From Limisphaerales bacterium (GTDB lineage: Bacteria > Verrucomicrobiota > Verrucomicrobiia > Limisphaerales > UBA11358), in contig PKZR01000281.1 of the NCBI GenBank assembly GCA_003133815.1, forward strand, positions 1 through 38,151: DNA of 38,151 nucleotides, read 5' to 3'. How positions within the stretch are numbered: the stretch's first letter is position 1; each line of letters opens with the position of its first letter. This document shows, piece after piece, positions 18,360 through 37,790 of this stretch. The notes beneath the pieces were generated by a model. It made no database searches. It worked only from the letters and a program-made list of their open reading frames with translations, and was not told the origin of the DNA. Position numbers and translations under genes: made by a program.

Positions 18360-18418
18360 ATGTTTATACAATTTTGTTATAAAGACTTATCAAGTTAAAT
18401 TTTGTTTCTACCTTTAGA

Positions 18419-20074: not shown

Positions 20075-20156
20075 GATTCAAGTTTTTGATTCGCTTTCCT
20101 TCACAAAGGAGAGAATTAATCGACATCACCCATTTCTGATTATTTTCTCAACCTGT

Positions 20157-20297
20157 TTATTGAACAGGCGTAACTGTATAATTGCCGTTAGCTTGTTCAC
20201 TTATACTCAATTGCTGGACATGATCGAAATTGATGAAGTCTTGCACCACCTGGCCCACTTGGCCGGGAGGAACTTCGGATATTGGCGGTGGAATCAT
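20157..20297 (-). CDS. possible 46-aa small protein (not in the ORF track; below its size cutoff)
   Basis: Hand translation gives MIPPPISEVPPGQVGQVVQDFINFDHVQQLSISEQANGNYTVTPVQ*. The ATG lies 4 nt after the stop of 20302..20496 on the same strand. Confidence 0.3.
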   Translation of the reverse strand: MIPPPISEVPPGQVGQVVQDFINFDHVQQLSISEQANGNYTVTPVQ

Positions 20298-20301
20298 AAT
20301 T

Positions 20302-20496
20302 TTATTTGATTTGAAATTTGCTGACTATTTCTTTCCTTACTTTGCTGAAATCTTTGCCACAAAGAGCATGCGTAATTCCATGTGGGGAGCATCCTTTCCC
20401 CTCCAGAAATTTGTTTAGAAGTTTGCAATTAGCTCGTGGATTCACATTGATCCATTTTCTAATCTTCGGTGTATTTTGATCCTGTCTGTGTTTCAT
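20302..20496 (-). CDS. small protein homologous to the C-terminal ~57 aa of the upstream lipoprotein
   Basis: ATG at 20496. NTPKIRKWINVNP...VRKEIVSKFQIK compares with NTSKIRAWLNVSA...IRSNIVTEFKIN at the C-terminus of 20508..21794. Confidence 0.5.
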   Translation of the reverse strand: MKHRQDQNTPKIRKWINVNPRANCKLLNKFLEGKGCSPHGITHALCGKDFSKVRKEIVSKFQIK

Positions 20497-20507
20497 AGAT
20501 TGCCTTA

Positions 20508-21794: not shown

Positions 21795-21838
21795 GGTTTG
21801 AATTTTGTTCGGCTTTGAAGCATGTGCATTTCAAAAAA

Positions 21839-23194
21839 TCAAGGGTTTGAACACATGGACAATACTGGTTCACTACTGCATATTGCATCAATTGTTTGTT
21901 TTAACTGATTACAAGCAAGCTTTAAGTCTCCCAAGCTTTGAAGTTGGCGTTGTTGTTCCAACTGTTGGCCAGCAGGAGAAGTGTTAAATGTTTGGTTCAC
22001 AGCAAATGCTCCGCTCATTAAGGTAGAGAACCGATAGTGGACATTTTTTAAATTCGCAATGTTGGCGTTATATGAGCTTTCAATTCCGGTGGTATCTGTC
22101 CCGCCATATTTTTCCTTCAAATATTTCGCGATAATGTCATCAAGAGTGGTATCGTTGAAGGGATTGACCGTGCGCGGCATATCACTCAACGCGGAAACTT
22201 TATAACCAGACCAAATGCCGGGAAACAAGTCTCTAAGCTGCTCACACGTTACACGATATTTCTGTAGTTCTTGCGGTTGATCATCGGGAGATGCCAACGT
22301 AAATTTTTCAGCCTGATCAGTCACCATTTTTATAAGCCGATTTCCGTAATCCATGCGTTCTTTCACTTCGCCACCCAGTTCATTGCGCACAGGAATTACA
22401 TCCTTATTTGTGCTGGGGATTACTATGGGTGGATTTGTACCGGGGTTCACAATGGGTGGTTTGTCATGTCCATTGAAAAGCAATTTGTAAAGACCTGGCG
22501 GAAATTCGAATGCGGCGGCTGTAAAAAGCGAGAAGGCAACCAAGATTGTCAAAATCACAACTGCCCACAGCAAAACAAGCATCGGCTTTATAAAATTCTT
22601 GTCCTCAAATCGTGCAAGCTTGGCGAAACCAAGAACGCAAACCATCAATACCAGCACGATTACGGCACCAAATATGGCAACTCGAAAATCAATGCGCCAC
22701 GCTGCCACGATGGCCACAACTGCCACAAGTCCCAACACGGCGAGAGCGTATCGCATTGCCGGCACTGCTTTGATTGCTTGATTCAAAATCTCAATGGGAC
22801 TCCAACCCGAACTTTTTTGTTTTGGTAGTTGTTCATCCATATATTCCTCCACTTTTTGTGTGAATGGCGTCCATGAATCAGATTCCTGGGCCGCTCTTGT
22901 AATGCAGGCTAATAGCTTGTTGATTTGAACCTGATCTGAAGGCAAAGAGATGGTAAGATGACCGGCTGAGCTTTCCACCCACAGACACGGCAGGTCGGTT
23001 ATCTTCAGGTCAGGATACCTTTTTGAGTCTGCGGCTGAATAAACATCGCCGGCATCTCCCTTCAAAACTGTGCTTGCTATCGCTACGTATAAATGATCTC
23101 CCGTGATGGCCGAAATCTCCTCTTTGTGATTATGAAAATAATCCCAGGCGCCTTGATTAACTTTCGCAAAAAGAGGGATGACTGTAATGACCAT
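21839..23194 (-). CDS. hypothetical membrane protein (soluble N-domain, ~3-4 TM helices, soluble C-domain)
   Basis: ATG at 23194. The central hydrophobic block is AMRYALAVLGLVAVVAIVAAW...IFGAVIVLVLMVCVLGF...MLVLLWAVVILTILVAFSLF. Confidence 0.6.
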   Translation of the reverse strand: MVITVIPLFAKVNQGAWDYFHNHKEEISAITGDHLYVAIASTVLKGDAGDVYSAADSKRYPDLKITDLPCLWVESSAGHLTISLPSDQVQINKLLACITRAAQESDSWTPFTQKVEEYMDEQLPKQKSSGWSPIEILNQAIKAVPAMRYALAVLGLVAVVAIVAAWRIDFRVAIFGAVIVLVLMVCVLGFAKLARFEDKNFIKPMLVLLWAVVILTILVAFSLFTAAAFEFPPGLYKLLFNGHDKPPIVNPGTNPPIVIPSTNKDVIPVRNELGGEVKERMDYGNRLIKMVTDQAEKFTLASPDDQPQELQKYRVTCEQLRDLFPGIWSGYKVSALSDMPRTVNPFNDTTLDDIIAKYLKEKYGGTDTTGIESSYNANIANLKNVHYRFSTLMSGAFAVNQTFNTSPAGQQLEQQRQLQSLGDLKLACNQLKQTIDAICSSEPVLSMCSNP

Positions 23195-23197
23195 AAT

Positions 23198-23788
23198 TCA
23201 ACCATTAAGGCAGGCTTTCCACGCTGCGCGTAATTCATCCGCAGTTGGTTTGCGATTTTTTGGTAAATGACTCTCGATACAGGATGGTGTTGGTATTCCA
23301 CCAACACCACCATCGGGATCAGTCACAATAAGAAAAAGAGCCGGACCCACCGGATGCCGAAACAAAGCTGTTTGTTCGTGATCTTCAATCCTGATCTTCG
23401 GCAAAAAATTAGAGCCGAATTCTCTCCTTGTATTAACCAAGCCGCTCAACTTTTCCACATTGTGGAATCCAAACGCGTCGAGCGAATATTTGAGGTCTTC
23501 TCCATTCGCAACTTTGCCGGAAACTTCTGAAGCGGCCCATAGCAAAGTGCGCTTGTGAGCGCTCGCCACATCCATACCGCTGGTTGCATTATAAACAAAA
23601 AGTTCCCGTAGTAATTGCATATGATTTTCCAGCGCATCATTAAAAAATGTCCGGGCCACCCTGATGATTTGAACCCGAATGAACCGGCAATATTCCGACC
23701 AATTTACATACAACTGCAACAGGAGAGTTGCCATCGTAAGTATGGCGAAAACAGCAATTGCTATCCATAGCCAATGTTTAAAATTCAT
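23198..23788 (-). CDS. hypothetical N-terminally anchored protein
   Basis: The track start 23791 is TTG; ATG at 23788. TM helix WLWIAIAVFAILTMATLLLQL. Its stop lies 3 nt before the next ATG. Confidence 0.55.
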   Translation of the reverse strand: MNFKHWLWIAIAVFAILTMATLLLQLYVNWSEYCRFIRVQIIRVARTFFNDALENHMQLLRELFVYNATSGMDVASAHKRTLLWAASEVSGKVANGEDLKYSLDAFGFHNVEKLSGLVNTRREFGSNFLPKIRIEDHEQTALFRHPVGPALFLIVTDPDGGVGGIPTPSCIESHLPKNRKPTADELRAAWKACLNG

Positions 23789-23929
23789 CAAACACTCCCC
23801 CGCTCATTAAAACGGGAGAAAAATAATTGCCAGCCGCGTATTTGAAAAGATTAAAACAAAATAATTTATTCTCGTCTGATAGCGTTTGGAATTGTCAAAA
23901 GTTCCATTTTCGATTGTTTTCACGTATTT

Positions 23930-24005
23930 CCTGTGAATTGACTGTCAAATATGGTGTTTCTCATTGAGAGCAGGAAATTGGCCTTCATTTTGTCCTGGAC
24001 GCGGG
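23930..24005 (-). pseudogene. relic of a second large serine recombinase gene
   Basis: 23954-24005 matches 15134-15185, inside the intact recombinase gene, at 46 of 52 nt. In the same frame it reads RVQDKMKANFLLSMRNTI versus RVQEKIKANFLLSRRNTI. Weaker colinear similarity extends to 23930. Confidence 0.5.
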
Positions 24006-24023
24006 GCTTCAGCCAATATCGGC

Positions 24024-24158
24024 TTAAAACCTCTGTTTCTTGCGTTTAATGAGAAAGGCGACTATGAGAAACGGAATGGCAATTACAAGGGCGATGAACG
24101 GCGCTTGTTCGAGCATTTTAAGGCCATGTTGAATTCCTGGGTCTTGCAGGGGTGTCAT
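24024..24158 (-). CDS. possible 44-aa single-TM peptide (not in the ORF track)
   Basis: Hand translation gives MTPLQDPGIQHGLKMLEQAPFIALVIAIPFLIVAFLIKRKKQRF*. It starts 30 nt downstream of the small P-loop gene on the same strand. Confidence 0.25.
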   Translation of the reverse strand: MTPLQDPGIQHGLKMLEQAPFIALVIAIPFLIVAFLIKRKKQRF

Positions 24159-24188
24159 ACGCTTGCTTTATTCAGATTAGCCGCCAGA

Positions 24189-24614
24189 TTATAGTAATTT
24201 CTTTATTTTATTAAAAATGATTCGCGCCAAAACTTTGTTGCGCCGATCTTGTAATTTAATAATTGGCTCTGCTTTCTTGTGATGCCAGATAATTATGAAT
24301 TCTGGTTTGAGGCTTTCAACTGCAAATACCGTTCCACCCCAATTTCTCGTTGTGCAGACAATGATATTGCATTTTTCTTTTTTGAATCGCTGAAGGCTTT
24401 CAGCCAGCCGACTGTTTGGGTCGCCCTGGCTCTCAATGCCAATTAATACGTCGTTGATCTTCATTATCAGAGAAATGTCGGCTCCGGGCGAGTGCAGGTG
24501 TTTAATGGGCGTAGTCGGATATGCCATTTTTAACAACCCGAAAATGTTTTTGATTGTGGAGCTTTTGCCGGTGTTGGCCGAGCCATAGACGGCAAAAATG
24601 GTCTTGGGATTCAT
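24189..24614 (-). CDS. small stand-alone P-loop NTPase-like protein (141 aa)
   Basis: The track start 24623 is TTG; ATG at 24614. Walker A GSANTGKSS, and a possible Walker B-like LIGIESQGD. It lies 108 nt downstream of the OLD-family gene on the same strand. Confidence 0.55.
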   Translation of the reverse strand: MNPKTIFAVYGSANTGKSSTIKNIFGLLKMAYPTTPIKHLHSPGADISLIMKINDVLIGIESQGDPNSRLAESLQRFKKEKCNIIVCTTRNWGGTVFAVESLKPEFIIIWHHKKAEPIIKLQDRRNKVLARIIFNKIKKLL

Positions 24615-24722
24615 ACGCCTCAATTCAATACTAATGCGACAAATTGAAACACAAAAAAATCATAAAATGTGTATATCAACAAGGATGAAAAACGCACGAT
24701 TTTCCTTGGCGAAAGCGCAAAG

Positions 24723-26540
24723 TTACCAGTTGAATGCAAATTGGACTAAATCTTTGATTTCAGCTTTCAGCGGATCTTCGCTTTCAACGATTTCTTTTAC
24801 ACGCTTCCAGATTCTATAGGGCTTATCACCGGAAGACTTTGGACGTTCCTCCCAAAACAAGTCTTCGAGAGTGTCGTCAATAACGCGAATGTTAGCAGGT
24901 TCCACAAATTGCGCGATTCGCGCATTCGCATTGTATGGATCAATTGGAATAGCCTCAGCAAGTTCCGCATCTGTGCGTCCTTTCTTGTCTCGGTCATGGA
25001 TTATTCGGAACGGAATCTCAAATTGTTTAAGCAAATTAGCTATAGGAGCAATTGTCCATTTTCCACCGCAGGAAACGACCGTGCAAAGAGATCGTTTTGC
25101 CATATCGACTTCGGCCTTGGCATAAAGCTCTTGCTGGTGAACCAGCAACGCCATTTCAGAATCACCTTCCACAAGCACGGTCCGTTTAGCAAAGAATGCT
25201 TCACAAACGGTGGGATGGAAGTCCAGAACAGCTCGCAGAGCTTCCCGATCTCGTTTCGATTCCACATCTTGGCCGAATGGGTCAACCTTGAGTTGGGAAA
25301 CCGTGGGAGGCGTTTTTGAATTTTCTCTTTTGAACACCGCGAGAGATAAAGGATCTGATCCAATATCAATTAAAAATGGCGAATGGGTGCTAACGATGAC
25401 TTGCCAATCCAGTTTCTGCGAAATTGCATGAAGGGCAGTCTTCAGCCTTCGCATGATATGTGGATGCAAGAAAAGTTCCGGTTCTTCAAAGAGGATGATT
25501 GTGCTTCGGGAGTGCAGTAAAACATTGGCCTCGTCCGTTATTTGAGCATTTTGTGCCGCCAGAACTTCCATCAACGCAAATATTAATGCCCGCTGCAAAC
25601 CGTTCCCCTGCAATTCAATTGAGGTTTTTGTTCCATCATCAAGGGCTATGCCGGTATTTGCGCCAATAAATTTTTCTGCATTTGGTGTTTCCATCGTCAG
25701 GAGCACCTTGGCATCAATTGTTGATGAAAGCCGTTCCGATATGAGCCTCGTGACTTCCCCAACTTTTTGAATTTGTTGTTCACCTTCAGCCGCAAGTTTA
25801 ACTTGAAGGTTTTCAACGGCCGTCATCAGGGTTAAATATTCTTCCGAAGTTTGAACCGCCGGAAGGATAATTTTGTTCAGGATCAAACCGAACGAGGTCT
25901 TGGCACCCGGTTTGCTATCTTCGCTCGCATTTCTAACAGCCGGAATTATCTGGGCTTGAGGAATGGCCTGCTGAAGAGCAGCATCAATGCTTATATTTTC
26001 ACCGGACCACTTTGGTTCACTCTGCGTAATTAATTCGGGTTTTGTTTCACGTATGCGTTGTCTGACCTGTTCCTGTTTTGCAGTGGGTTTCCATGTAGTT
26101 TGGTTCGTTATACCCAATTCTCCGGCGACGGCCTGAATTTCGGCATTTAGAGTGGCCCATTTATCCGACCAGCCGGCAATCACTTCCTCTGGTTTGAATG
26201 CCTCATACACTTTTTTTATTTTTTCAGTCTCGGCTTCGATAAAAAACCGGACGCGTAAGCGAATTTTGTCTGCATGAACAACTCCAGCTACGCCGGGTGT
26301 GGCTTTTTCCCATTCCTGTAAATCACCAAATTCACCTTCAATGATCATTTCCTTATCTTTATGCCCCTTGCGCCATTCCTCAATGCTTGGCGATTGTTGG
26401 TTCAAAAAGATTTCAATGGCGCGTAATACTGAAGATTTGCCACAATTATTCGGTCCAATAAAACTGGTAAAACCCCTGATATTGATAGTTGTGTCTTCAA
26501 TGCATCGAATGTTTTTTACTGTGATTGATTTTAATTTCAT
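24723..26540 (-). CDS. OLD-family ATP-dependent nuclease (ABC-type ATPase + C-terminal Toprim)
   Basis: ATG at 26540. MKLKSITVKNIRCI...FIGPNNCGKSS (Walker A), ILFEEPELFLHP (Walker B / D-loop region), Toprim TVLVEGDSEMALL and IIHDRDKKG. Confidence 0.85.
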   Translation of the reverse strand: MKLKSITVKNIRCIEDTTINIRGFTSFIGPNNCGKSSVLRAIEIFLNQQSPSIEEWRKGHKDKEMIIEGEFGDLQEWEKATPGVAGVVHADKIRLRVRFFIEAETEKIKKVYEAFKPEEVIAGWSDKWATLNAEIQAVAGELGITNQTTWKPTAKQEQVRQRIRETKPELITQSEPKWSGENISIDAALQQAIPQAQIIPAVRNASEDSKPGAKTSFGLILNKIILPAVQTSEEYLTLMTAVENLQVKLAAEGEQQIQKVGEVTRLISERLSSTIDAKVLLTMETPNAEKFIGANTGIALDDGTKTSIELQGNGLQRALIFALMEVLAAQNAQITDEANVLLHSRSTIILFEEPELFLHPHIMRRLKTALHAISQKLDWQVIVSTHSPFLIDIGSDPLSLAVFKRENSKTPPTVSQLKVDPFGQDVESKRDREALRAVLDFHPTVCEAFFAKRTVLVEGDSEMALLVHQQELYAKAEVDMAKRSLCTVVSCGGKWTIAPIANLLKQFEIPFRIIHDRDKKGRTDAELAEAIPIDPYNANARIAQFVEPANIRVIDDTLEDLFWEERPKSSGDKPYRIWKRVKEIVESEDPLKAEIKDLVQFAFNW

Positions 26541-26698
26541 AAAGAAAATCCGAAAACTCGTAAAGACGTTTTGTTGATTATACTACTCCCGGCCAAAATT
26601 GCACCTTTAAAAGTTCGCCTCTATATCGCATAATGCTGCGAGGTATTTTGCGATTGCCTAAAATTATTCGCGGGTTAAGATGATGAAAACGAACTCCG

Positions 26699-27667
26699 AT
26701 GACCAAGGGAAATCATCTGCAATTGTTTGACCAGGCCCATTTGAAAGCTCGGTTTAGTCCTGCTGGCGTTCATTTGTTTGACCGAGCGACCGGAATGAAT
26801 GTTCTTCTCGACGAGATTCGAGTGCCTTCAGTTATGTGGACGAACGCTCCGCGACAAGTTTCAATTGCGTTGACGAATGCGTGTGATCTTTCCTGTTCCT
26901 ACTGCTTTGCGCCAAAGAATCATGCAGTGCTTGATTTTGAAATGATTATCAGTTGGCTTGACGAACTGGATGCAAACGGCTGTTTTGGCATCGGCTTTGG
27001 AGGTGGAGAACCAACGCTTTATCCACGTCTGGCGGAACTGTGCCAATACGCAGCGGAGAACACGCGACTAGCTGTAACTTTTACTACTCATGCACACCAC
27101 CTTGACGAATCGCTTGTTTCCGCTTTGGCCAGTAACGTGCATTTTGTAAGAATTAGCATGGATGGTGTTGGTGCCACATATGAGGCACTCCGTGGACGGT
27201 CGTTTGCGGTGCTTCGCCAAAAACTAACTGTCATGCAGCAATTGTCGCCATTCGGAATCAATTTCGTTGTAAATTCACGCACTTTTCTTGATTTGGATGC
27301 AGCGACTGCGTTAGCTGCCGAGGTTGGTGCATCCGAATTTCTATTATTGCCTGAACAGCCCGTTCGCGGTGCTGGCGGCATTGATAGTTGCACGGCTCAA
27401 GAATTACACTTATGGGTCGCACAATATCGCGGCAAAGTTCGTCTTACAGTAAGCGAAGCAGGTGCTGACGGACTACCTACTTGCAATCCACTTGATAAAG
27501 AAACTGGACTTTGTGCTTACGTGCACATTGATGCGTCTGGCATCTTAAAACATTCTTCTTATGAGAATGATGGTGTGGCTATCGGCGATGGCGGGGTAAT
27601 GCAAGCGATAAATGAATTGCAAACTTTTAGAAGGAGGAACAACAATGAAAATCTGGCACGGTTATAG
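26699..27667 (+). CDS. radical SAM enzyme (not viperin-type)
   Basis: ATG at 26699. CDLSCSYC (CX3CX2C, nt 26882-26905), GFGGGEPTLY SAM-binding motif, and three further Cys residues near the C-terminus. Confidence 0.85.
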   Translation: MTKGNHLQLFDQAHLKARFSPAGVHLFDRATGMNVLLDEIRVPSVMWTNAPRQVSIALTNACDLSCSYCFAPKNHAVLDFEMIISWLDELDANGCFGIGFGGGEPTLYPRLAELCQYAAENTRLAVTFTTHAHHLDESLVSALASNVHFVRISMDGVGATYEALRGRSFAVLRQKLTVMQQLSPFGINFVVNSRTFLDLDAATALAAEVGASEFLLLPEQPVRGAGGIDSCTAQELHLWVAQYRGKVRLTVSEAGADGLPTCNPLDKETGLCAYVHIDASGILKHSSYENDGVAIGDGGVMQAINELQTFRRRNNNENLARL

Positions 27668-28040
27668 TTCAGAACACTCACACAATATCGTAATGATCGG
27701 TCGCTTCAAAACTGCGGCTGATGCAAAAGATGCAGACGCCGCAATCAGTCAAATCAGCGATCGGGTGCGCAATGAAGGTGACGCTAATCGTGAAGCGGAG
27801 CGTTATAGCCAAGCGTTGGTTGACCTCTTGTCAAAATTGAAAATCCACACTATCACACCCGGTGAGCTTGAGCAATTTACTTATGATGTTCATGTTGATC
27901 TTAAGAATGACCGAATAGAATTATGGACTGACGAAGGGGTGGTAACGGCGTTCTTGAAGGTGCTTGTTGATTCGGGCGCTCGTGTTGAGGTCTATTCTGC
28001 GCACGATTATCCTGAAACGGAGGAAAAGAAAGACAAATGA
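27645..28040 (+). CDS. hypothetical small acidic protein (131 aa)
   Basis: AAGGAGG at 27631-27637 lies 7 nt upstream of the ATG at 27645; the track start 27612 is also an ATG but lacks an RBS. It overlaps the end of the radical SAM gene by 23 nt and ends 21 nt before the STAND gene. Confidence 0.6.
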   Translation: MKIWHGYSSEHSHNIVMIGRFKTAADAKDADAAISQISDRVRNEGDANREAERYSQALVDLLSKLKIHTITPGELEQFTYDVHVDLKNDRIELWTDEGVVTAFLKVLVDSGARVEVYSAHDYPETEEKKDK

Positions 28041-28061
28041 GGCGGCGATAATAGGAAACCT

Positions 28062-31000
28062 ATGCCATCCGTAAATTGGAATGTATTTGAGCAGTTGCCC
28101 GGTAGCGCAGAGAATAACTTTGAAATGTTGTGTCGAGCGCTTATACGCCGACATTACGGGGGCCATGGTCAATTTGCAGCGCTTGCAAATCAACCGGGGG
28201 TAGAGTTTCACTTAAAATTGCATACCGCCTGCGCCCTTGGCAAACCTAACCGCTGGTTTGGTTGGCAGTGTCGCTGGTATGGAACTTTGCCAAGCGGCAC
28301 GTCACTTGGGCAAGCGCGCCGAGATAAAATTGAAAAGTCGCTATCAACAACCGTAAAGGTGTTGCCTGACTTGACTGACTGGGTATTGTGGACACGACAT
28401 CCACTCACTGCGGGCGATCAAAAATGGTTCTATGGCCTTAAGGCAAAGATGCACCTAAAAATGCGTCTCGATCTTTGGACCAAGGCGGATGTCGAAGACC
28501 TTCTTAATGGTGAAGCTGAAATTTTTAGGAGCACCTACTTTGGCGATTTAATTCTTTCACCCAATGCTTTGTCAACCCTACATGGGACATGGGTTGCGCG
28601 TGTTAAAAAGCGTTGGTTGCCTGAAGCCCACCAAGTCGTCGAAGCCGAAAGAACGTTAAGACGAATGCTTGGGGAAACCCAATCGTGGGAACAGTTGGTG
28701 AACGTTGCTGATCGGCTGTTAGCCGCTACCAAATCCATCAATGCTGACATAGATAAATTGACAGGTCCGCTTGCCACGACAACCAAAGAATTCGTTGAAT
28801 ACGTTCAGCTTTTTGCCACATCATTAAATGAAGCACACAAACTGCTTGGCAAGGGCGACCTTGACCTTCTCCGACAGCAGCTTGAAGCCCGTGTCAATAT
28901 GCCTACCGCAAAGCTGACAACTGCCTTACGCAAATTGCGGGCAGCCCGGCAGCGTGCAGCGCTGATTGCCACAAATACACTTGCTGACCTGCGTTTAGGT
29001 CACAAGCTTCTTGATGAGGTCAATAGTTTTCTTGGAACACGACTTGTTGGTGTTCTGGCGGACGCTGGAGGTGGCAAGACCCAGCTTGCGGCACAATTAA
29101 CAGCCCCATCGTCTGATAGACCTGCCGGAATTTTGATTTATGGCCAAGACCTCCACGCGGGTCACGATCTCGATGAACTAGCTCGTAAAGTGACGTTGCC
29201 GGGAACTGGAACGCCTATTTCCAACATGGAGGCTCTTGTCGCGGCACTGGACGCCGCCGGACAACGTGCCCACCGACGACTTCCAATCATAATTGACGGC
29301 CTAAACGAGGCTGAAGATCCACGAAATTGGAAAGGTCCACTCGCTTCACTTAATGAAACCCTTCGCCGCTATCCATACGTCTTGGTTGTATGCACACTAA
29401 GAACTGGAACGCGTCTTCCTACTGAGCAAAACGAGTGGCAACCTGCTCCCGAAGTGTGCACTCGAAGAACGGCTTTCGCTGATGAAGCATTGCCGGAGGG
29501 AATTCAACACTTGGAAATGTCTGAATTTGGCGGAGATACGACGGAAGCCATCAGGCGATACTTTCAATATTATAAAATCAATTCTGGCGACGTAGAATTG
29601 CCGCTTTTGCTTAGCCATCCATTAACTCTCCGTTTGTTCTGTGAAGTAACCGACCCAAAGCGTGAGAAAGAAGTGGGTATCGAAGCGATGCCTGGGTCGC
29701 TTACTGCTATATTTGAAAGTTATTTAGGAAAGGCGGCTGAACGTATTGCAGAACTCGCACCACTCAGTCGTAGATATTACGAACTGGACGTGCAAAGGGC
29801 ATTCGACGAAATCGGAACAAGTCTTTGGGATCGCCGCGCACGCACCGTTAGCGAACGTGACTTGCGAAAAACATTAGGTGACGAAACTCGGCCATGGAAT
29901 GAGAGCATTGTTCGTGCATTGGAGCAAGAAGGCGTCATTCTACGATTGCCGGGAATTGCTCCGGGTGACATAGATGTAATGGCTGTTTACGATGCCATGG
30001 GAGGTCATCTTGCGGCAAAGGCAATTTTAATGCGTCACGGTGGGAATGCATTTGAACAATGGTTGAAAAATCCGACGACGCTTGCAGCTTTGTCTGAACC
30101 TCCATCCGGTCGGTTCCGTCCCACTGTGCAGCCACGAACGCTTGAGCCGTCGCCCATTGAATTATCACCTGCCCACCCACTAGCCACTGATATTTTTCGA
30201 GCTTTAGTGGGGCTTGTTCCCCGGCACCTTAATCGGCAACAATTGTGGCCGTTGCTCGATGAACCGCTACGAACCCTCGCTCTTTTAAGAGCATCCCGTT
30301 TGGAAGGTGCATACCTCGATAATGCAACCGTTCAGGCACTCTTCATGCTCGCGTCCGAATCAAGCAAATTGTTTCCCCGATTGCATCAAACACGCGGTGC
30401 CGTAGCGCACCCTCTTAATGCCAATTTTTTGGATTCGGTTTTGCGTCCGATGAAGGTGGCGCAACGCGACCTTATCTGGACCGAGTGGATTCGACGGAAT
30501 CGGGAGATTTTTCTCGACAGATTACACGATTTGGAACAACGATGGCGCCGTGTGCCGACGACACGAACATCTTCAGATCAACTTACAGCACGGTGGGTCA
30601 TGTGGATGCTTACAAGCACAATTCGGGAGCTTCGTGATAAGGCGACTCGCACTCTATATTGGTTTGGTCGTGGAGATTCGACAACGCTGTTTGAGCTGAC
30701 CTATGAATCGCTGGCAATAAATGATCCATATATTCCAGAACGTATGATGGCTGCAAGTTATGGAGTAGCAATGGCACGACACGTTGATTTAACAGGCAAA
30801 AATTTTGTAAAAAAAATATTGCCAGTTTGCGCAAAACGTATTTATGAGTTGATTTTTAAGGAAAATGCACCTCACAGCAATACCCACGTTTTGATGAGAG
30901 AATATGCAAGAAGAATATTGGAACTTGCATCATTTCATCATCGTAAAAATTTTTCAGCGGTGGAGACGGCCAGAACAATGCCACCATATAAAGATGGTGG

Positions 31001-32408
31001 TCTACGCGAGTGGCCAGAAAGCAAAACTGGCAAAGATGAATTCTACGGCCAAAACTCTCCATTCCGTATGGATTTTGAGAATTATACGTTAGGTCGACTC
31101 GTTCCAGGCCGTGGAAATTATGACTCAAAAAATCCGGAGTATCGGAAGATCAGAGCGCAAGTGCTGTGGCGGGTTGAGCAGCTTGGTTGGTCTGTCGAGC
31201 TTTTCAAAGAAATAGACCAACAGATTGCAAACGATCTGCGCTATCCGCACGGACGATCATCCGACGAAAATAAGAAAACTGACCGATATGGAAAGAAGTA
31301 TTCATGGATAGCCTATTTTGAAATGGCTGGGCTATTGCGAGATCAGGGCAAAATAGGCAAAGACTATGAAGATGACGATAGGCCAAGCGATATTGCAATT
31401 GACCCGAGTTTTCCGTTACCGCTTCCGAAAGAGAGACTTATTTCAGGCGATTTTCTGGGCAGTCCAAAATTATCACTGAAAGATTGGATAGCGAATGGTG
31501 GTGTGCCAAACGTGTCTCCATACCTTAAAATGTCGGAGGTTCAGAATCAACCGGGGCCGTGGATTGCGCTTGATGGTTTTTTTACGCAGGAAGATGCAAG
31601 ACGCGGGCGAAGAACATTCTGTTTTATTCGCAGTTTTTTGGTAGAGCAGCCAGACGCCAATTCGTTTTTTAAGCATCTATCGCAGCAAAATCTTGGTGGC
31701 CGATGGCTGCCTGACAATCCAAGAGTCATATACACTTTCGCAGGGGAAATCCCGTGGTGTAAAATCTATCCAAAATATGGATTTAGGAAGTTCCATTTTG
31801 TGGTTGCTGAAAAAAAAGTGAAAATAAAACGAAAGAGGCCAGCTTGTTTTTTAGACGGGAAGCAGATTCAATTAACGCGGTTCGACCTTCATCGTATGGC
31901 AAATATGCCCATCATGTTCAGTGCCGATGAGAAAACAGGTCTTTCACCAGAAGAAATTGAACGCGTAGAACTGCGCAATATCATTGTCGAGGAAGAAGAG
32001 ATTCAGAGGCAAACCAACTCATTCAAGGCGTTGATTCCAGTTTGTGACTTCGGATGGGAAGGCAAAAATTTTGAGAATGAATCTATTCATGCGACCGTCT
32101 TGGCCAAAGAGATTGCTAATAGTCTTCAATTAGTCGGACAACCGCAAACATTTGACTCATTTACGAAAGATGGCGTGAGAGCAACATTCGGAGTTGCAGA
32201 ACGGAGCAATTACAACAACAGTCAGAGCTTGTTCTTGATACGGGAAGATTTGTTAAAGGGTTATCTTAAAAATAAGAAGTTGTCACTTGTTTGGGCAATA
32301 TGGGGAGAACGTGAATACGCAACGGATCTTATCAATAAATGGAATGATAGCAAGCGGCCTAAAATACCCTATAAAGTATACCAAACGATAAAACAATTCA
32401 AAGCGTAA
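28062..32408 (+). CDS. 1448-aa STAND (NACHT-like) NTPase with an N-terminal Mrr-like PD-(D/E)xK-type domain and a long uncharacterised C-terminal region
   Basis: ATG at 28062. N-terminal FEMLCRALI...QPGVEFHLKL...WFGWQCRWY resembles Mrr_cat (FE..., GiD, QcK) but with QCR. Walker A ADAGGGKT (nt 29061-29081). Walker B LPIIIDGLNEAED (about nt 29280-29318). Confidence 0.8.
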   Translation: MPSVNWNVFEQLPGSAENNFEMLCRALIRRHYGGHGQFAALANQPGVEFHLKLHTACALGKPNRWFGWQCRWYGTLPSGTSLGQARRDKIEKSLSTTVKVLPDLTDWVLWTRHPLTAGDQKWFYGLKAKMHLKMRLDLWTKADVEDLLNGEAEIFRSTYFGDLILSPNALSTLHGTWVARVKKRWLPEAHQVVEAERTLRRMLGETQSWEQLVNVADRLLAATKSINADIDKLTGPLATTTKEFVEYVQLFATSLNEAHKLLGKGDLDLLRQQLEARVNMPTAKLTTALRKLRAARQRAALIATNTLADLRLGHKLLDEVNSFLGTRLVGVLADAGGGKTQLAAQLTAPSSDRPAGILIYGQDLHAGHDLDELARKVTLPGTGTPISNMEALVAALDAAGQRAHRRLPIIIDGLNEAEDPRNWKGPLASLNETLRRYPYVLVVCTLRTGTRLPTEQNEWQPAPEVCTRRTAFADEALPEGIQHLEMSEFGGDTTEAIRRYFQYYKINSGDVELPLLLSHPLTLRLFCEVTDPKREKEVGIEAMPGSLTAIFESYLGKAAERIAELAPLSRRYYELDVQRAFDEIGTSLWDRRARTVSERDLRKTLGDETRPWNESIVRALEQEGVILRLPGIAPGDIDVMAVYDAMGGHLAAKAILMRHGGNAFEQWLKNPTTLAALSEPPSGRFRPTVQPRTLEPSPIELSPAHPLATDIFRALVGLVPRHLNRQQLWPLLDEPLRTLALLRASRLEGAYLDNATVQALFMLASESSKLFPRLHQTRGAVAHPLNANFLDSVLRPMKVAQRDLIWTEWIRRNREIFLDRLHDLEQRWRRVPTTRTSSDQLTARWVMWMLTSTIRELRDKATRTLYWFGRGDSTTLFELTYESLAINDPYIPERMMAASYGVAMARHVDLTGKNFVKKILPVCAKRIYELIFKENAPHSNTHVLMREYARRILELASFHHRKNFSAVETARTMPPYKDGGLREWPESKTGKDEFYGQNSPFRMDFENYTLGRLVPGRGNYDSKNPEYRKIRAQVLWRVEQLGWSVELFKEIDQQIANDLRYPHGRSSDENKKTDRYGKKYSWIAYFEMAGLLRDQGKIGKDYEDDDRPSDIAIDPSFPLPLPKERLISGDFLGSPKLSLKDWIANGGVPNVSPYLKMSEVQNQPGPWIALDGFFTQEDARRGRRTFCFIRSFLVEQPDANSFFKHLSQQNLGGRWLPDNPRVIYTFAGEIPWCKIYPKYGFRKFHFVVAEKKVKIKRKRPACFLDGKQIQLTRFDLHRMANMPIMFSADEKTGLSPEEIERVELRNIIVEEEEIQRQTNSFKALIPVCDFGWEGKNFENESIHATVLAKEIANSLQLVGQPQTFDSFTKDGVRATFGVAERSNYNNSQSLFLIREDLLKGYLKNKKLSLVWAIWGEREYATDLINKWNDSKRPKIPYKVYQTIKQFKA

Positions 32409-32594
32409 CGCTTTACTGTCGCACTTTATATTGGCAATGCCGCTCTATAAGAAACAACATTATCTACCGAACGCGTATTTAAAGTATTGTTCCACCGATC
32501 AAAACCCATCTGACAATTTATCAGCACCAATTTTACGGGCGACTTACATGGTAAGTAGGGGCAATCTGCCCAACGATTGAATTGCACGGCTTAA

Positions 32595-32912
32595 CCGCCG
32601 CACCACTGGCTCCCAACGTGTCGTCGGCTACCGCTCGACAATTCTCTTTCTCCCTGACGGGCTAACCGGCTAAAGGACATCTACCCGCTGTCCTTTAGCA
32701 GAAAGAGAATTGTCGGGCGGGACGGGCTATCGCCCTTACCCGCCGACACGTTGGGGGACTGGTGTTAAGAGAAGGTGCTATCGCACCGACCACCAGCCCG
32801 CTAACGCGACAATTCGCCCGAAGGCGGAGTCACGACGGGTGTTACTTGGAGAAAGAGTCGCCGCGACTGCGGCACTGAAAATGAGCCGCGCCGAATGGCG
32901 CGTCCTTTTTTT
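32595..32912 (+). ncRNA. candidate structured RNA (or DNA-level oriT/recombination locus): GC-rich nested hairpins ending in a terminator
   Basis: The outer helix pairs 32601-32628 with 32742-32764. A perfect 16-bp helix pairs 32636-32651 with 32700-32715. An 11-bp hairpin pairs 32669-32679 with 32689-32699. Further hairpins include 32774-32787. I recognised no known RNA family. Confidence 0.35.
32885..32912 (+). terminator. intrinsic terminator
   Basis: GC stem ccgcgcc/ggcgcg with a GAAT loop, followed by tcc and a run of seven T (32906-32912). Confidence 0.6.
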
Positions 32913-32943
32913 GCCGGAACCGGCAAGTTTCGGCGTCTGGTTT

Positions 32944-32964
32944 AATATGCGGGATTCGCATATT
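32944..32964. promoter_or_regulatory. 8-bp perfect inverted repeat upstream of the T4CP-like gene (possible operator)
   Basis: aatatgcg (32944-32951) and cgcatatt (32957-32964) are separated by ggatt. Confidence 0.25.
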
Positions 32965-33046
32965 CTCTGAATCTCAATCGGATTTCAAAACCAGTCGCCA
33001 TTACCCCGCCGGCCTGTTCCCAAACATCCTGCCGGCGTTCAGTCTG

Positions 33047-34387
33047 ATGACACGGGGACTTTGGGAGTGGCGACTGGTTTTGGAACCTGACGAACCAAAC
33101 ATAGTGATCGGAAATCGTGACGGCTACGGAAAGCCGTTGCCTTTTGGCATATCTGCCAGCGACCAGCGGCAGCATATTTACATCATCGGAAAAACAGGAT
33201 CAGGAAAGACGACATTGCTCCGCAACCTGATTTTGCAGCACATCAAACTTGGACATGGCATTGGACTGATTGATCCGCACGGGGACTTGGCCGAAGAATT
33301 GTTACATCACATTCCGCCCAAGCGGGCTGACCACTTGGTATATTTTAATCCGGGTGACATTGAATTTCCAATCGGGCTTAACTTGCTCGCAAATGTCGCG
33401 CCGGATGACCGGCATCTTGTGGCATCCGGCATCGTGGGCGCGTTCAAGGGCATCTGGCGGGATTCATGGGGGCCGAGGCTTGAATATATCCTCTACAATG
33501 CGGTGTCAGCCCTTTTGGACTGCCGGAACGCAACCCTTTTGGGCGTCAACCGGATGCTCACGGATGACACATACCGGGCCAAAGTGGTCCGGCAGATCAA
33601 AGACCCATTCATCAAGGCGTTTTGGGCGGAGGAATATGCCAGATATGACGAACGGTTCAAACGCGAGGCCATCGCGCCCATTCAAAACAAGCTCGGCCAG
33701 TTTCTTTTGAACCCGGTGATCCGAAACATTTTGGGTCAAGTGAAGAACAAAGTGAGCATCCCATTTGTCATGGACAACCAGAGGCTGTTCATCGCCAACC
33801 TGTCGAAAGGCAGGCTTGGACACGACAAAGCGAATTTGCTTGGATCATTGCTGACAACGCAATTCCAGCTTGGCGCAATGGCGCGGGCGAACCGGCCAGA
33901 GGAAGAACGAAAAGATTTTTACCTATTCATTGACGAGTTCCAGAACTTTTCAACCAACGCGTTCGCGTCCATTCTCGCGGAAGCCCGAAAATATCGCTCA
34001 TGTCTGACGTTATCGCACCAATACATTGACCAGCTTCCGCTTCCGATCCGGCAAGCGGTATTCGGCAATGCAGGGACATTGATTTCCTTTCGCATCGGCA
34101 ATACCGATGCCGAAGTGATGGAAAAGGAATTCGGCAATACATTCCCGGCGAGTGTTCTGGTTGACCTTGACCGATATGAGGCGGCGGTGAAATTGCTGGA
34201 CGATGGAATGAATCGGGAACCGTTTCGGGCGAAGATGCTGCCTCCATTGGAAAACCGCGTTGGCCGGAAGGACAAACTCATCGCCCTATCGCGCGAACGG
34301 TTTGCCGTTCGGCGCGCGAAGATTGATGTAAAATTGAAGCGGTGGATGAATTCAAAGATAACTCCGCTACTGACAGACGAATCGTAA
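33047..34387 (+). CDS. TM-less TraD/VirD4-like (T4SS DNA-binding domain, FtsK/HerA-superfamily) P-loop ATPase
   Basis: ATG at 33047. Walker A IIGKTGSGKTTLL, DPHGDL, Walker B FYLFIDEFQNF, SHQYIDQL. Confidence 0.75.
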   Translation: MTRGLWEWRLVLEPDEPNIVIGNRDGYGKPLPFGISASDQRQHIYIIGKTGSGKTTLLRNLILQHIKLGHGIGLIDPHGDLAEELLHHIPPKRADHLVYFNPGDIEFPIGLNLLANVAPDDRHLVASGIVGAFKGIWRDSWGPRLEYILYNAVSALLDCRNATLLGVNRMLTDDTYRAKVVRQIKDPFIKAFWAEEYARYDERFKREAIAPIQNKLGQFLLNPVIRNILGQVKNKVSIPFVMDNQRLFIANLSKGRLGHDKANLLGSLLTTQFQLGAMARANRPEEERKDFYLFIDEFQNFSTNAFASILAEARKYRSCLTLSHQYIDQLPLPIRQAVFGNAGTLISFRIGNTDAEVMEKEFGNTFPASVLVDLDRYEAAVKLLDDGMNREPFRAKMLPPLENRVGRKDKLIALSRERFAVRRAKIDVKLKRWMNSKITPLLTDES

Positions 34388-34398
34388 TATCCATCATA

Positions 34399-35343
34399 TT
34401 AAAATTGTTGCTCATTTCCAAATTCCACAAAATCAGAAGCGCGGTGATAATGATCGAGACTGATGATTCCTGGACCCTCAACAAACATTTTTGCATAGCC
34501 AGAGCAAATACCCATTTTAAGAATTTCCAGTGATGTTTTATTTTGGGCAATGCCCAAAGCAAAAGCCCCTACCATTGCATCACCGCAGCCTATTACATCA
34601 AGATCGCCTTGCTCGTGTAGATTTGTTTTGGCTTGAACGTAATGTCTTTTTTCACGGTCAATCCATAAGGCTCCATTTTGACCCAATGACACCACCACAA
34701 TGTTGCTTTTTATCAGATTTGATGCCGTAGTCACGATCTCATCTATGTTGACAAGGTTTCTTCCAGCCAGCCTGGAAAGCTCTTCCAGATTAGGTTTTAC
34801 GAGCCTCACATTTTTACAGTCAATTTTACTTAACAAGGGAGGGTCAACATCCAGCAGAATAATTCCTTTGCGCTCGGAAATCAGGCGCACAAGCTTGTCC
34901 AAGTAGTCAGGTGGAGTTCCTATTGGAATGCTTCCCGACACAACAATCACGTCTCCTTCATTTATACTTGGATAAAGCGCCTTTTCAAGCTCATTTAGAT
35001 TTGATTCCGTGACATGATAGCCTTGGTTTTGGACATGACATATCAATTCAGCGTTCTTATTTACCAATGTGATGTTTTTTCGTGTCACCCCTTCACAGGC
35101 TATGACATGAGCCTTTATTTGAGGAGATATGGACGAAAACGAGTGAACTTCATTGGCTCCGCTAAAGCAATACAAGCCCACTTCTCCTCCTAAAGAAGCG
35201 ATGGCGCGCGAATTATTGACAGCCTTGCCAGCCAAATACTCCCTATAACCTTCAGAGCGGATAATCGCTCCAAGAGTAAATTGAGGTATTCTTATTCGGA
35301 TGTCTATGGCTGTATTTAATGATATTGCGTGAATGTTTCTCAT
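34399..35343 (-). CDS. PfkB-family carbohydrate kinase, 1-phosphofructokinase/tagatose-6-P kinase (FruK/LacC)-like
   Basis: The ATG at 35343 overlaps the stop of the TIR gene (ATGA at 35340-35343). SLNTAIDIRI, LAGKAVNNSRAIASLGG, KPNLEELSRL, VSLGQNGALW, DVIGCGDAMVGAFALG. Confidence 0.85.
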   Translation of the reverse strand: MRNIHAISLNTAIDIRIRIPQFTLGAIIRSEGYREYLAGKAVNNSRAIASLGGEVGLYCFSGANEVHSFSSISPQIKAHVIACEGVTRKNITLVNKNAELICHVQNQGYHVTESNLNELEKALYPSINEGDVIVVSGSIPIGTPPDYLDKLVRLISERKGIILLDVDPPLLSKIDCKNVRLVKPNLEELSRLAGRNLVNIDEIVTTASNLIKSNIVVVSLGQNGALWIDREKRHYVQAKTNLHEQGDLDVIGCGDAMVGAFALGIAQNKTSLEILKMGICSGYAKMFVEGPGIISLDHYHRASDFVEFGNEQQF

Positions 35344-36677
35344 TTTGCGATTTGAATCTTATCCTTCGCCTTTTCGACCAGCTCCATGTAACGCGAATCT
35401 GTCCCACCATCATTGGTAATCAGTATAACATCGTCCTGAAATGTCCCAAAACACACTTCTTCAACAATGCCGATTTTTGAAATGTCACCGAGAATGAGCT
35501 TCTTCCTGCCGTTCTTCATGAGGCTCAATTTGTTTTTGGTTTCGGCGTTGCTATGGGTGGTAAAACCTTTTTCAAAATGAATACCATTAACTCCTATAAT
35601 CGAAAAATCTACACCGCCTAGCTGGTCGAAAATATTTTGAAGCTGAACGGATTCTTGACCTTGCTCTTCAATCACGGCAAGGGTGTTGGGGCGGACTCTG
35701 CCACCACCCAAGTATAACTTAAAACCACTATTTTCGTCATCGAACCCCAGTCGGGTTCCTGTTTCCAAAAAAATGTTCGCTGCACTGATTGAAGTTGTGA
35801 CAATTGAGATGTTAAAGAGGGATTTGTTTGCAAGGCGCGTGCAAAGAATTTTCGCCAGTTCGTCAGTTGTAGAACCGGCGTCTAAAGCAATTTTGTGACC
35901 AGATCGAATGTGTTGTGCGGCGACTTTTGCTATTTTTCGCTTCGCCTCGGCGGATATTTTGCCTTTCCATTTGTAATGCTCCTCTCGGACATAAAGCTCG
36001 AAACCATCATAAACAAGACCCGGAATTAAATCATTTTGAATGATCTTGCGCATCAATGTTTCAAAATCATTGGAGTTATAGTCCGGTGACTTTGATTTTA
36101 GAATGGCGTGCAGTTCGTCCACTTGCAGCGGTTTTGACTCTCGATACCCAAAGACAACCTGCCTGATTGAGTCTGCAATTTCATTTAACACTTCATCGGT
36201 TCGATCAATAACAGACGCCTTTGTCACGCTTGCCGGGCTTCTGAGCGATTGTATGTCCCTGCAAATCAGTGAAAAAAGTTCTGATGTAATTCGCTTGGAT
36301 AATGCGCGCACCGAATTTTCAGTGTAGTCCTCAAGTTTTAGATATTTTCGTTCCTTGATTATTTCGGGCTTGATATTATTCCATGCTTCTTTATCAACAA
36401 CAATAGGCAGGAGAAAAACCCTGTCCAACTTGCGCTCTTGCTCCAGTGTCCATGAAATCTCTTTCTCTACCCATGGTGAATTCACCGAAAAGGAATCAAT
36501 GAAAAGCAAAATATAGTCGGTTTCCTTTTTTATTGCGTTTTCCAGACTGTGTTCAATTGAATCGCCTATTAGAAGTTTATCTTCATCAATCCATGTATTG
36601 ATATGGTCGGGGAGAATCTTGCGAATTTCGCGAACTAACGGCTTTTGACCGCTGCTATGGCTAAAAAATATTCTCAT
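35340..36677 (-). CDS. TIR domain fused to a DeoR-type module (degenerate wHTH-like linker + DeoR C-terminal sugar-phosphate sensor domain)
   Basis: ATG at 36677. TIR: MRIFFSHSSGQKP...DYILLFIDSFSVNSPWVEKEI, with a candidate catalytic Glu (E73, nt 36459-36461) in the S.W...E. motif. DeoRC: KIALDAGSTTDELAKIL, ISIVTTSISAANIF, LYLGGGRVRPNT, DFSIIGVNGI, KLILGDISKIG, VILITNDG. Confidence 0.8.
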   Translation of the reverse strand: MRIFFSHSSGQKPLVREIRKILPDHINTWIDEDKLLIGDSIEHSLENAIKKETDYILLFIDSFSVNSPWVEKEISWTLEQERKLDRVFLLPIVVDKEAWNNIKPEIIKERKYLKLEDYTENSVRALSKRITSELFSLICRDIQSLRSPASVTKASVIDRTDEVLNEIADSIRQVVFGYRESKPLQVDELHAILKSKSPDYNSNDFETLMRKIIQNDLIPGLVYDGFELYVREEHYKWKGKISAEAKRKIAKVAAQHIRSGHKIALDAGSTTDELAKILCTRLANKSLFNISIVTTSISAANIFLETGTRLGFDDENSGFKLYLGGGRVRPNTLAVIEEQGQESVQLQNIFDQLGGVDFSIIGVNGIHFEKGFTTHSNAETKNKLSLMKNGRKKLILGDISKIGIVEEVCFGTFQDDVILITNDGGTDSRYMELVEKAKDKIQIAK

Positions 36678-36887
36678 AAAATGTTTCCAGTTCCTGATTG
36701 CGACAGCAACAGCGCAACTTTGAGACGCATTGATTATATTGCTTAAAATCTACGTCCCGCAAGAACCAATCAATGTTGTGCCGTGTCTGTAAAATTTATT
36801 CACGGCCTTAAATTACCCTGCAAACTTGCCGCAAACGACAAACCTTGGCGCCTTCATTGACTGCCTGCCATCGTGCAAAATGGCGCG

Positions 36888-37790
36888 ATGGAATCACGCC
36901 TTCCACGATTCAACCGCGCCCCCATCGTTGCATCCATGCAGCTTGAGGAGCGCGACAGCCAGATCATCCGGCTCGTCCACCGGCACCGTTTTCTCCGTTC
37001 CGATCACATTGTTTCCTTCATGGGAGGCAGTCGGCAGCAGATTTTGCGACGATTGAAACTTTTGTATCACCACGGATATTTGGAACGCCCCCGTGCCCAA
37101 ATCCAATACTACGAGCGCGGCGGCTCCCGCAGCATTGCATACGGGTTAGGAAATAAAGGAGGGGTGGTGCTGCGGCAGCTTGGCATCACGGTGGATTCTG
37201 ATTCATGGACCGAAAAGAACCATGTCATCGGTCGGGTATATCTTGAACACGCCTTAATGGTGGCAGACGTGATGGCAGCGGTTGAACTCGCCTGCCGGAA
37301 ACATGGTGGCGTCCGGCTTCTCTACGAAGACGAGCTTGCACTTCCCATGGAACGTCAGCCGTTTGGTTGGCAGGTGAAGATTCAGAATGGTTTGAAACTT
37401 GGCGTCATCCCCGACCGTGTATTTGCATTGGATTTTTCAGATGCAAGTGGTCAAAACCAGCGTGTGCATTTCTTTCTTGAGGCCGACCGGGGAACCATGC
37501 CGGTCACGCGTCATACGCTTTCTCAAACTTCCTTTTTCCGCAAGCTGCTTGCATACGAAGCGACATGGACGCAGAAAATTCACCAGCGGTATCTTGGAAT
37601 CCATCGGTTCCGGGTGCTTGCCGTCACGATCAGTGCGGCACGGGTGAAATCAATTGGGGATGCGTGTTCCCAATTGAAACGCGGACACGGCTTGTTCCTG
37701 TTTGCCGATAAAACCATTTTGACCGGCGACATAATTTCTTCCGTCTGGCAGACCGGCAGGTCGGGGGAAATTGGGAGTCTGTTGGGTTAG
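36888..37790 (+). CDS. replication-relaxation (Replic_Relax) family protein
   Basis: The track start 36873 is GTG; in-frame ATGs lie at 36888 and 36936. LEERDSQIIRLVHRHRFLRSDHIVSF...ILRRLKLLYHHGYLER, ...IPDRVFAL...FFLEADRGTM. Confidence 0.75.
   Translation: MESRLPRFNRAPIVASMQLEERDSQIIRLVHRHRFLRSDHIVSFMGGSRQQILRRLKLLYHHGYLERPRAQIQYYERGGSRSIAYGLGNKGGVVLRQLGITVDSDSWTEKNHVIGRVYLEHALMVADVMAAVELACRKHGGVRLLYEDELALPMERQPFGWQVKIQNGLKLGVIPDRVFALDFSDASGQNQRVHFFLEADRGTMPVTRHTLSQTSFFRKLLAYEATWTQKIHQRYLGIHRFRVLAVTISAARVKSIGDACSQLKRGHGLFLFADKTILTGDIISSVWQTGRSGEIGSLLG

Follow-up and report, generated by a model that had tools for sequence, protein, structure and literature searches.

What is the role of the hairpin-rich stretch that separates a defence gene from a coupling-protein gene in a Limisphaerales genome? 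The window studied here is the whole contig PKZR01000281.1 (38,151 nt) of a metagenome-assembled genome (MAG). It contains a gap of 638 nt between an Avs2-like STAND gene (28062-32408) and a gene resembling those of type IV coupling proteins (T4CP; 33047-34387). An earlier note on this DNA had described a nested-hairpin element in the gap, at 32595-32925. Two readings were proposed there, a conformational switch in an RNA and a DNA site such as an origin of transfer (oriT). Both survive our tests. The oriT is favoured, although it is not proven over the RNA. We see about an even chance that the element is the oriT and relaxosome site of a family of integrative mobilisable elements (IMEs) with MOBC relaxases in Verrucomicrobiota. 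Putative relaxosome-binding repeats probably belong to the same region.

A conserved non-coding element in a mobilisation module

The main features of the locus are the following.

32532-32925, no strand assigned: hairpin-rich non-coding core, candidate oriT region (blastn, flank comparison, 36-sequence alignment, covariation counts, nhmmer)
32961-32966, plus strand: -10-like hexamer TAnnnT (its T, A and T columns are invariant in alignment A1)
About 32978-33046, plus strand: conserved block 2, probable 5' leader of the T4CP messenger RNA (hairpin with G-U intermediates)
33047-34387, plus strand: gene for the T4CP-like ATPase, 446 amino acids (Pfam TrwB_AAD_bind, E 1.9e-11)
36873-37790, plus strand: gene for a Replic_Relax protein, a MOBC-type relaxase (Pfam PF13814, 69.8 bits against a cut-off of 25.3, E 4e-19)

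The existence of a conserved non-coding element at this place is confirmed. Homologues (E <= 1e-3) are present in 28 of the 162 other genomes of the genus, 17 at E < 1e-30. Some of these genomes carry two or three copies. Among 400 other genomes sampled from the phylum, one matches, a member of the same taxonomic order. A profile of the core (nhmmer) finds 27 further MAG loci. All of them are upstream of a T4CP gene and on its strand. The related loci are labelled as Verrucomicrobiota, in MAGs of the Limisphaerales type. The profile also finds a distant relative, L074 (E 4e-6), with a T4CP 48% identical to that of the window. With the exception of L074, the T4CP homologues at about 50% and about 37% identity, mostly labelled Patescibacteria, show no core homologue in a repeat search (on 18 of them) or with nhmmer. 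None of the loci labelled Patescibacteria is matched by the profile.

The element is larger than first described. The interval 32595-32925 is the middle of a conserved non-coding block that extends from about 32532 to 33046. Its left homology edge is sharp, within a few bases of 32532 in all loci, and the DNA to the left of it is unrelated cargo. This edge borders a hotspot where the unrelated cargo includes serine recombinases. The GC content is 0.595-0.61 at 32600-32899 and 0.365-0.43 directly upstream. The enrichment of the gap reported before is therefore borne out for the left flank.

An open reading frame (ORF) exists at 32710-32970. It has no match in Pfam, PADLOC or NCBIfam, and its tblastn matches in relatives are broken up and split. 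For these two reasons the region is treated as non-coding. The element is not a dispersed repeat, because the window's own genome (an 82%-complete MAG) has a single copy. Known RNA families do not account for it either. Rfam 15 gives no match at the gathering score over the whole window, and the best sub-threshold match up to E 10 has E 0.19. The STAXI model is among those of Rfam without a match to the element. ARAGORN finds no tRNA or tmRNA. No reverse transcriptase (RT) domain is present among the 33 ORFs of the window scanned against Pfam, as a retron would have. These results agree with the earlier failure to match the element to a known RNA and with the statement that no RT is nearby.

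The position of the element is constant. In 15 of 19 loci of the genus, the T4CP-like gene follows it immediately on the same strand. A Replic_Relax match is found further downstream in 11 of 12 loci of 20 kb; among these 11, L035 has only a partial match (residues 8-137). The proximity to coupling-protein genes, suggested before as a check on an oriT, is found in these 15 loci and in the 27 MAG loci, and that to relaxase genes in the 11. In L037, no relaxase match appears in the 8 kb after the T4CP gene.

Structure and covariation of the core

The core can be divided into nine features.

32540-32558: H1, an 8-bp palindromic hairpin with a 3-nt loop and two positions that flip from A-T to T-A (36-sequence alignment)
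32559-32571: H2, a small G+C hairpin with a variable loop (read by eye in a ragged alignment; one variant alters both sides)
32586-32606: tract with almost no variation, left unpaired by the model and located 5' of the large inverted repeat (alignments A1 and A2)
32612-32651: left arm of the large inverted repeat; its outer part is invariant, and after a junction comes an inner stem in which a 6-bp segment varies freely
32652-32699: apical region of the large repeat, including a partly conserved 11-bp hairpin
32700-32756: right arm of the large repeat, with an optional side hairpin at 32724-32735
32774-32828: three short hairpins (32774-32787, 32799-32808 and 32813-32828)
32848-32857: distal box; reverse-complemented, it is identical to the left-arm 10-mer at 32644-32653
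32859-32935, plus strand: three G+C hairpins, the middle one (32887-32902) followed by T7 (terminator scan)

The inverted repeats listed in the earlier note are all present. The outer stem of the large repeat pairs 32612-32630 with 32737-32755 (I3, 89% complementary), and the inner stem pairs 32631-32651 with 32700-32720 (I2, 95%). Three more repeats are 100% complementary: 32669-32679 with 32689-32699 (I6), 32644-32653 with 32848-32857 (I9) and 32707-32715 with 32807-32815 (I12). We compared the RNA fold of 32595-32925 with dinucleotide shuffles on both strands. The plus strand reaches -164.7 kcal/mol against -119.4 (sd 5.3) in the shuffles, z -8.5. The minus strand reaches -173.9 kcal/mol, z -8.1. 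None of 100 shuffles folds as well. These values bear out the folding noted before. A long-range helix, 32754-32766 with 32987-32999, was also predicted by folding. It was ruled out by an uncompensated T-to-G change in 10 of 36 homologues.

Covariation was counted on a hand-drawn structure of 68 pairs in 8 helices, using the 36 core homologues of alignment A2 (alignment A1 has 17 sequences). Standard pairs occupy 90.8% of the cells, compared with 85.5% in shuffles and 36-45% when the partners are slid. Twenty pairs change on both sides, against 12.9 in shuffles, and none of 500 shuffles reaches 20. The cells changed on both sides are 103 against 31. Compensatory changes, sought as a check on an RNA, are therefore present. 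Nearly all changes in the helices go from one Watson-Crick pair to another. These counts indicate that the complementarity of the helices is selected.

The helices differ in how they vary. In the outer stem of the large repeat both arms are invariant within the genus, and 12 of 16 pairs never vary. The distant L074 keeps the design, and its outer stem carries a compensatory change from A-T to C-G. In the inner stem, 63 cells are changed on both sides and 3 are G-U. Most of these changes are A-T to T-A flips that keep the complementarity. The apical 11-bp hairpin (helix 6) exists as described and is fully complementary in the window. However, it is only partly conserved (80.7% paired), with an invariant right arm and a drifting left arm. 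The apical region also has an invariant 8-nt motif at 32690-32697. H1 (helix 1) is paired in 91.3% of cells, with both-side changes at 3 pairs, and L074 holds a longer version of it.

Helices 7 and 8, among the short hairpins of 32774-32828, are 93.6% and 98.1% paired, with both-side changes and a paired deletion. The side hairpin 32724-32735 is missing in 12 of 36 homologues (counted by eye). Where present, it shares a 4-nt loop and a G+C stem core with the hairpins 32774-32787 and 32799-32808. The three hairpins of 32859-32935 are kept across homologues, also with both-side changes. The terminator scan detects hairpin 32887-32902 and its T-run in the window, so the terminator noticed earlier looks like an intrinsic one here. 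Nevertheless, only 7 of 17 aligned homologues have at least 4 T after this hairpin (by eye).

The left-arm 10-mer has two possible partners. With the distal box it is complementary at 10 of 10 positions in 22 of 36 homologues, and at 9 of 10 in 8 more. Three distinct left-arm variants occur, each with a perfectly matching variant of the distal box. The partner in the right arm is shorter and has a C-A mismatch in 18 of 36. One of the two alternative pairings proposed before is therefore conserved and covarying. The other is not: the second cgacaattc copy, at 32807-32815, is restricted to the window and one relative (L009), 2 of 36. The three-way pattern of left arm, right arm and distal box fits competing helices. 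It would also fit a single protein site present in three co-evolving copies, two of them direct and one inverted.

The substitution pattern looks like that of DNA. The inner stem has 63 both-side changes and 3 G-U cells, whereas the hairpin of the leader block, probably transcribed, has 7 G-U cells and 3 cells changed on both sides. Moreover, both outer arms are invariant, and the z-scores are equal on the two strands.

The element as a candidate origin of transfer

An oriT is expected within or beside a relaxase and coupling-protein module, and the element has this location in the loci counted above. Conserved inverted repeats are likewise expected. The large repeat, with its invariant outer arms and covarying inner stem, provides them. 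The compact island copy of genome G044 (locus L034, about 10 kb long) allows all the gaps to be compared. The element fills the largest intergenic gap, of 708 nt. Folded as DNA, this gap has z -5.7, and the others have -2.4, -0.4 and -1.5. In the window, the DNA upstream of the relaxase gene has neither an inverted repeat nor a conserved block and shows little conservation. Since no other gap folds strongly and nothing similar precedes the relaxase gene, the element is the only visible candidate if the island has an oriT.

The gene order is also that of a mobilisable island. The T4CP-like ATPase gene comes first, followed by 0-7 kb of variable cargo and the Replic_Relax gene. Behind the relaxase are genes for a DnaG-like primase, DUF6166, a DNA methylase, ArdC, an ATP-dependent ligase and RadC. 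To the left of the element is an HTH_3 gene on the opposite strand and, in several loci, a large serine recombinase. Three elements were annotated over their full length (window, G120 and G044), and none showed genes for a type IV secretion system (T4SS) or VirB4. By analogy, the island is an IME. A VirD4-type coupling protein, a MobC relaxase and a serine integrase are the trio that defines class 8 of the streptococcal IMEs, which are compact and have no T4SS (PMC5357655, in excerpt). That excerpt treats class 8 as gene modules and does not describe an oriT for it. The present islands have more than class 8, namely the module of primase, ArdC, RadC and ligase genes and two hotspots of defence-gene cargo.

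PF13814 corresponds to the MobC/MOBC relaxase family in the excerpt of PMC5357655. Excerpts of four papers describe MOBC relaxases as PD-(D/E)XK nucleases and not as HUH enzymes (PMC5357655, PMC3424549, PMC5714925, PMC6736028). For the MOBC relaxase of CloDF13, no covalent DNA intermediate was detectable (PMC6736028). The structure search found no solved relative of the relaxase encoded here. Against plasmids, its only match is in Bradyrhizobium. Judged by titles and abstracts, none of the papers found on Verrucomicrobia and MOBC relaxases deals with this element.

The closest known systems are oriT2 of pAD1 and the oriT of pAM373 (relaxases TraX/Orf8). Their relaxases belong to PF13814/MOBC, as does that of the island (excerpts of PMC5357655, PMC5714925 and PMC6736028). 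Both also have a T4CP-like gene alongside. On the other hand, pAD1 is a plasmid of Enterococcus faecalis, and the island belongs to another phylum, is integrated and has a serine recombinase. No plasmid of PLSDB is similar to the element in sequence. The oriT2 of pAD1, the subject of work by Francia and Clewell in 2002 and Francia et al. in 2013, reportedly consists of an inverted repeat of about 140 bp with the nic site, beside short direct repeats. This reported architecture resembles the large repeat and repeated motifs found here.

Several points weigh against an oriT. The DNA of the element has no similar record in the PLSDB plasmid collection or in the phage collection, so there is no link to a proven oriT. 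The locus L058 has the T4CP gene and the leader block, with no core within 1.5 kb. The matches of the T4CP-like protein to the TraD and VirD4-like models of NCBIfam are below the cut-off. In pAD1 the oriT reportedly lies between the T4CP and relaxase genes, and here the element is upstream of the T4CP gene. Covariation is equally expected of a folded RNA and cannot separate DNA from RNA. A conserved and covarying pairing like that of left arm and distal box is a classic trait of RNA switches, and no oriT is known to need one. Finally, the non-Watson-Crick cells of the plus strand are 53 A-C against 28 G-T, at 13 and 9 positions. These wobble counts lean to the minus strand, too slightly to assign a strand.

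If the element is an oriT, it could work as follows. The relaxase, possibly with a helper protein, would recognise the invariant arms and motifs of the large repeat. The repeat would extrude, or fold after the strands separate, and one strand would be cut in it or near it. The coupling ATPase would then pass this strand to the secretion system of a helper element. The distal copy of the left-arm motif may be a second, mutually exclusive partner, with a role in the single strand or as a third protein site. The 3' hairpins would insulate the promoter of the transfer operon from transcription of the cargo.

A further possibility, for which we see a clearly lower chance than one in two, is that the transfer origin contains a nucleic-acid switch with two stable states. 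The left-arm 10-mer would pair with the right arm or with the distal box. The first pairing would close the long hairpin, in many cases over a single weak position (C-A or G-T). In the second, the 10-mer would instead pair perfectly with the distal box about 200 nt away. Its site of action might be the single strand that is transferred, or an RNA copied from the element. The switch might, for example, set the island either to a state ready for nicking and transfer or to a closed, insulated one. If true, it would be a control principle not known from any oriT, in the least understood relaxase family. A working alternative pairing would mean that conjugative DNA processing is controlled at one more, new level.

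Very few oriTs of MOBC relaxases are known, and this family, whose members resemble restriction enzymes, is poorly understood. Here the candidate is sharply delimited. It combines invariant motifs with covarying stems, and more than 36 natural variants of it exist in a phylum of soil and peat that is uncultured. Because the islands carry defence systems, it also marks a means by which immune genes could move between Verrucomicrobiota.

Promoter, leader and transcription

The hexamer TAnnnT at 32961-32966 has an equivalent in 34 of 36 homologues (by eye, alignment A3), and TGn precedes it in 14 of 36. It is probably the -10 element of the promoter of the T4CP and transfer operon. A consensus sigma-70 scan of 32300-33200 finds no promoter-like site on either strand, that is, no full -35/-10 pair. 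A riboswitch or attenuator in the leader of the T4CP operon was considered for the core. This was rejected, because the conserved hexamer lies downstream of the core, which would then not be part of that leader.

Other motifs were observed around the leader block. Together with the first T4CP codons it forms a 28-nt inverted repeat (32978-33090, 82% complementary) whose loop holds the start codon. A further motif, of about 12 nt, has three direct copies (32754, 32932 and 33069) and an inverted one (32988). The inverted repeat or the motif could serve translational control or be protein-binding sites.

In four metatranscriptome runs, contigs cover the neighbouring genes patchily, at depth 2-9. 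None of them runs over 32537-32925. One ends at 32536, where assembly graphs are expected to branch because strains share the element. These contigs speak neither for nor against transcription.

Alternative readings

The element could be a structured non-coding RNA (ncRNA) of about 300-400 nt, made by the island from either strand. With two mutually exclusive folds, it would control transfer or establishment. It might act in trans or control read-through from the cargo into the transfer operon. We regard this as possible, with a chance well under one half. The very stable fold and the covariation in 8 helices are what such an RNA would show. Nevertheless, G-U intermediates are almost absent from the covarying stem, and the invariant arms of the outer stem point to readout of the sequence over pairing alone. 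The three-way covariation of left arm, right arm and distal box suits an RNA with two folds, especially as the distal partner is so often perfect and the right-arm partner mismatched. Rfam, however, gives no match up to E 10 among its known families. The 3' hairpins are terminator-like in the window, but the T-run is not conserved. By eye, the minus-strand reading of one hairpin loop is a tetraloop of the UUCG type. In an RNA library, the 5' part of a relative's element is present on a contig of depth 9.4. Against this, no conserved promoter is found upstream of the core, where the homology starts abruptly, and the sigma-70 scan is empty.

A precedent exists for such an RNA. Salmonella genomic island 1 (SGI1) needs sgm-sRNA, a small RNA encoded beside the oriT, between it and a relaxase-like gene, and essential for mobilisation (PMC9299015, in excerpt). 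An RNA and an oriT can therefore share one region. The relaxase of SGI1 is MpsA, which resembles tyrosine recombinases and is unrelated to the one found here. The sequence of sgm-sRNA is also unrelated to the element, and the RNA in our case is putative.

A less likely explanation is a signal that acts in the single strand of transferred DNA. It could be a priming site of the single-strand origin (sso) or single-strand initiation (ssi) type for the DnaG-like primase, or a promoter like Frpo, and it may adjoin the true nic site. The outcome would be synthesis of the complementary strand, or early expression of establishment genes in the recipient. Frpo of the F plasmid, ssi, sso and the STAXI motif of Bacteroidota conjugative transposons are long conserved non-coding hairpins beside establishment genes (antirestriction, primase, single-strand-binding protein), proposed to act in the transferred single strand.

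The island has its own primase, with methylase, ArdC, RadC and ligase genes as are typical of leading regions, all downstream and on the same strand. Long imperfect hairpins with strict Watson-Crick covariation would also suit the folding of DNA. Unlike these known signals, the element has no promoter-like hexamers in its stems (no -35/-10-like hexamers in the sigma-70 consensus scan), no match to Rfam or STAXI and no conserved start triplet for a primase. The CTG beside a hairpin has its T in only 25 of 36. The wobble lean to the minus strand, the template strand of the establishment genes, rests mainly on three positions. Of the 36 homologues, 35 have the more stable fold on the minus strand with RNA parameters, and all 36 do with DNA parameters. 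We rejected this stability as evidence of strand, since the shuffled baselines carry the same offset and the difference thus reflects composition.

It is improbable that the region is only regulatory or insulating, with operators of the HTH_3 repressor and terminators, and does not take part in DNA processing. A divergent HTH_3 gene lies about 450 nt upstream in three loci, which have no large cargo in the interval. The two halves of H1, a perfect 19-bp palindrome, change together, and terminator-like hairpins stand directly before the conserved -10. However, about 400 nt with an inverted repeat of 50 bp per arm, invariant tracts and a covarying distal box are more than operators and terminators need. 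The island would then also be left without any candidate oriT.

A recombinase site seems unlikely, because the only recombinase gene of the window ends about 16.5 kb upstream and the upstream recombinases of the window, L028 and L034 are mutually unrelated; this and anything else share the remainder.

Cargo and unusual loci

The T4CP-like protein is short, with its Walker A motif near residue 45. It seems to be without the N-terminal membrane part of TrwB-type coupling proteins. In the PDB it has a weak match to TrwB. In PADLOC it scores best against mad8, which belongs to the MADS defence system (E 2e-17).

Cargo is found at two hotspots, one from the HTH_3 gene to the core and one from the T4CP to the relaxase. 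In the window, the first (16911-32408) has Trypsin_2 and Trypco1 genes, a patatin gene and a gene for an OLD/GajA-like ATPase-nuclease (24723-26540). These are followed by a viperin-like radical-SAM gene (26699-27667) that overlaps a DUF6375 gene (27612-28040). The Avs2-like STAND protein, of 1448 amino acids, comes next. The second hotspot (34399-36677) has a PfkB sugar kinase gene coupled to one for a TIR-DeoRC fusion protein.

T4CP-like proteins 35-50% identical (L070-L118) are common in MAGs labelled Patescibacteria (Candidate Phyla Radiation, CPR). Several records with T4CPs more than 80% identical bear the labels of unrelated phyla (Saccharibacteria, Bifidobacteriaceae, Betaproteobacteria). 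These labels look like mis-binned contigs or recent transfer.

Some other loci are unusual. Genome G123 has the transfer module twice on one contig (C7; L031 at 274 kb, L032 at 331 kb), the two copies facing each other at a distance of 57 kb. The two or three copies of other genomes are on separate contigs. In L038 (G162:C20, 10480-15064), other DNA interrupts the T4CP gene after about 35 codons. Beyond the cut are another serine recombinase and, on the opposite strand, Sel1 and TIR genes. This suggests that a second element inserted into the first. L038 is not an orphan copy without a T4CP, as the truncated gene is present.

Finally, in L024 (G108:C105, 1-1659, with the joint at 159/160) the left half of the core is fused to the middle of a DUF6166 gene in the same orientation. 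The homology of this core to all relatives ends exactly after the equivalent of 32697, behind the invariant motif 32690-32697. Two nucleotides are shared at the joint, and the right arm and the T4CP, relaxase and primase genes are skipped. The joint may have arisen by deletion at a possible nic site, or else by chimeric assembly.

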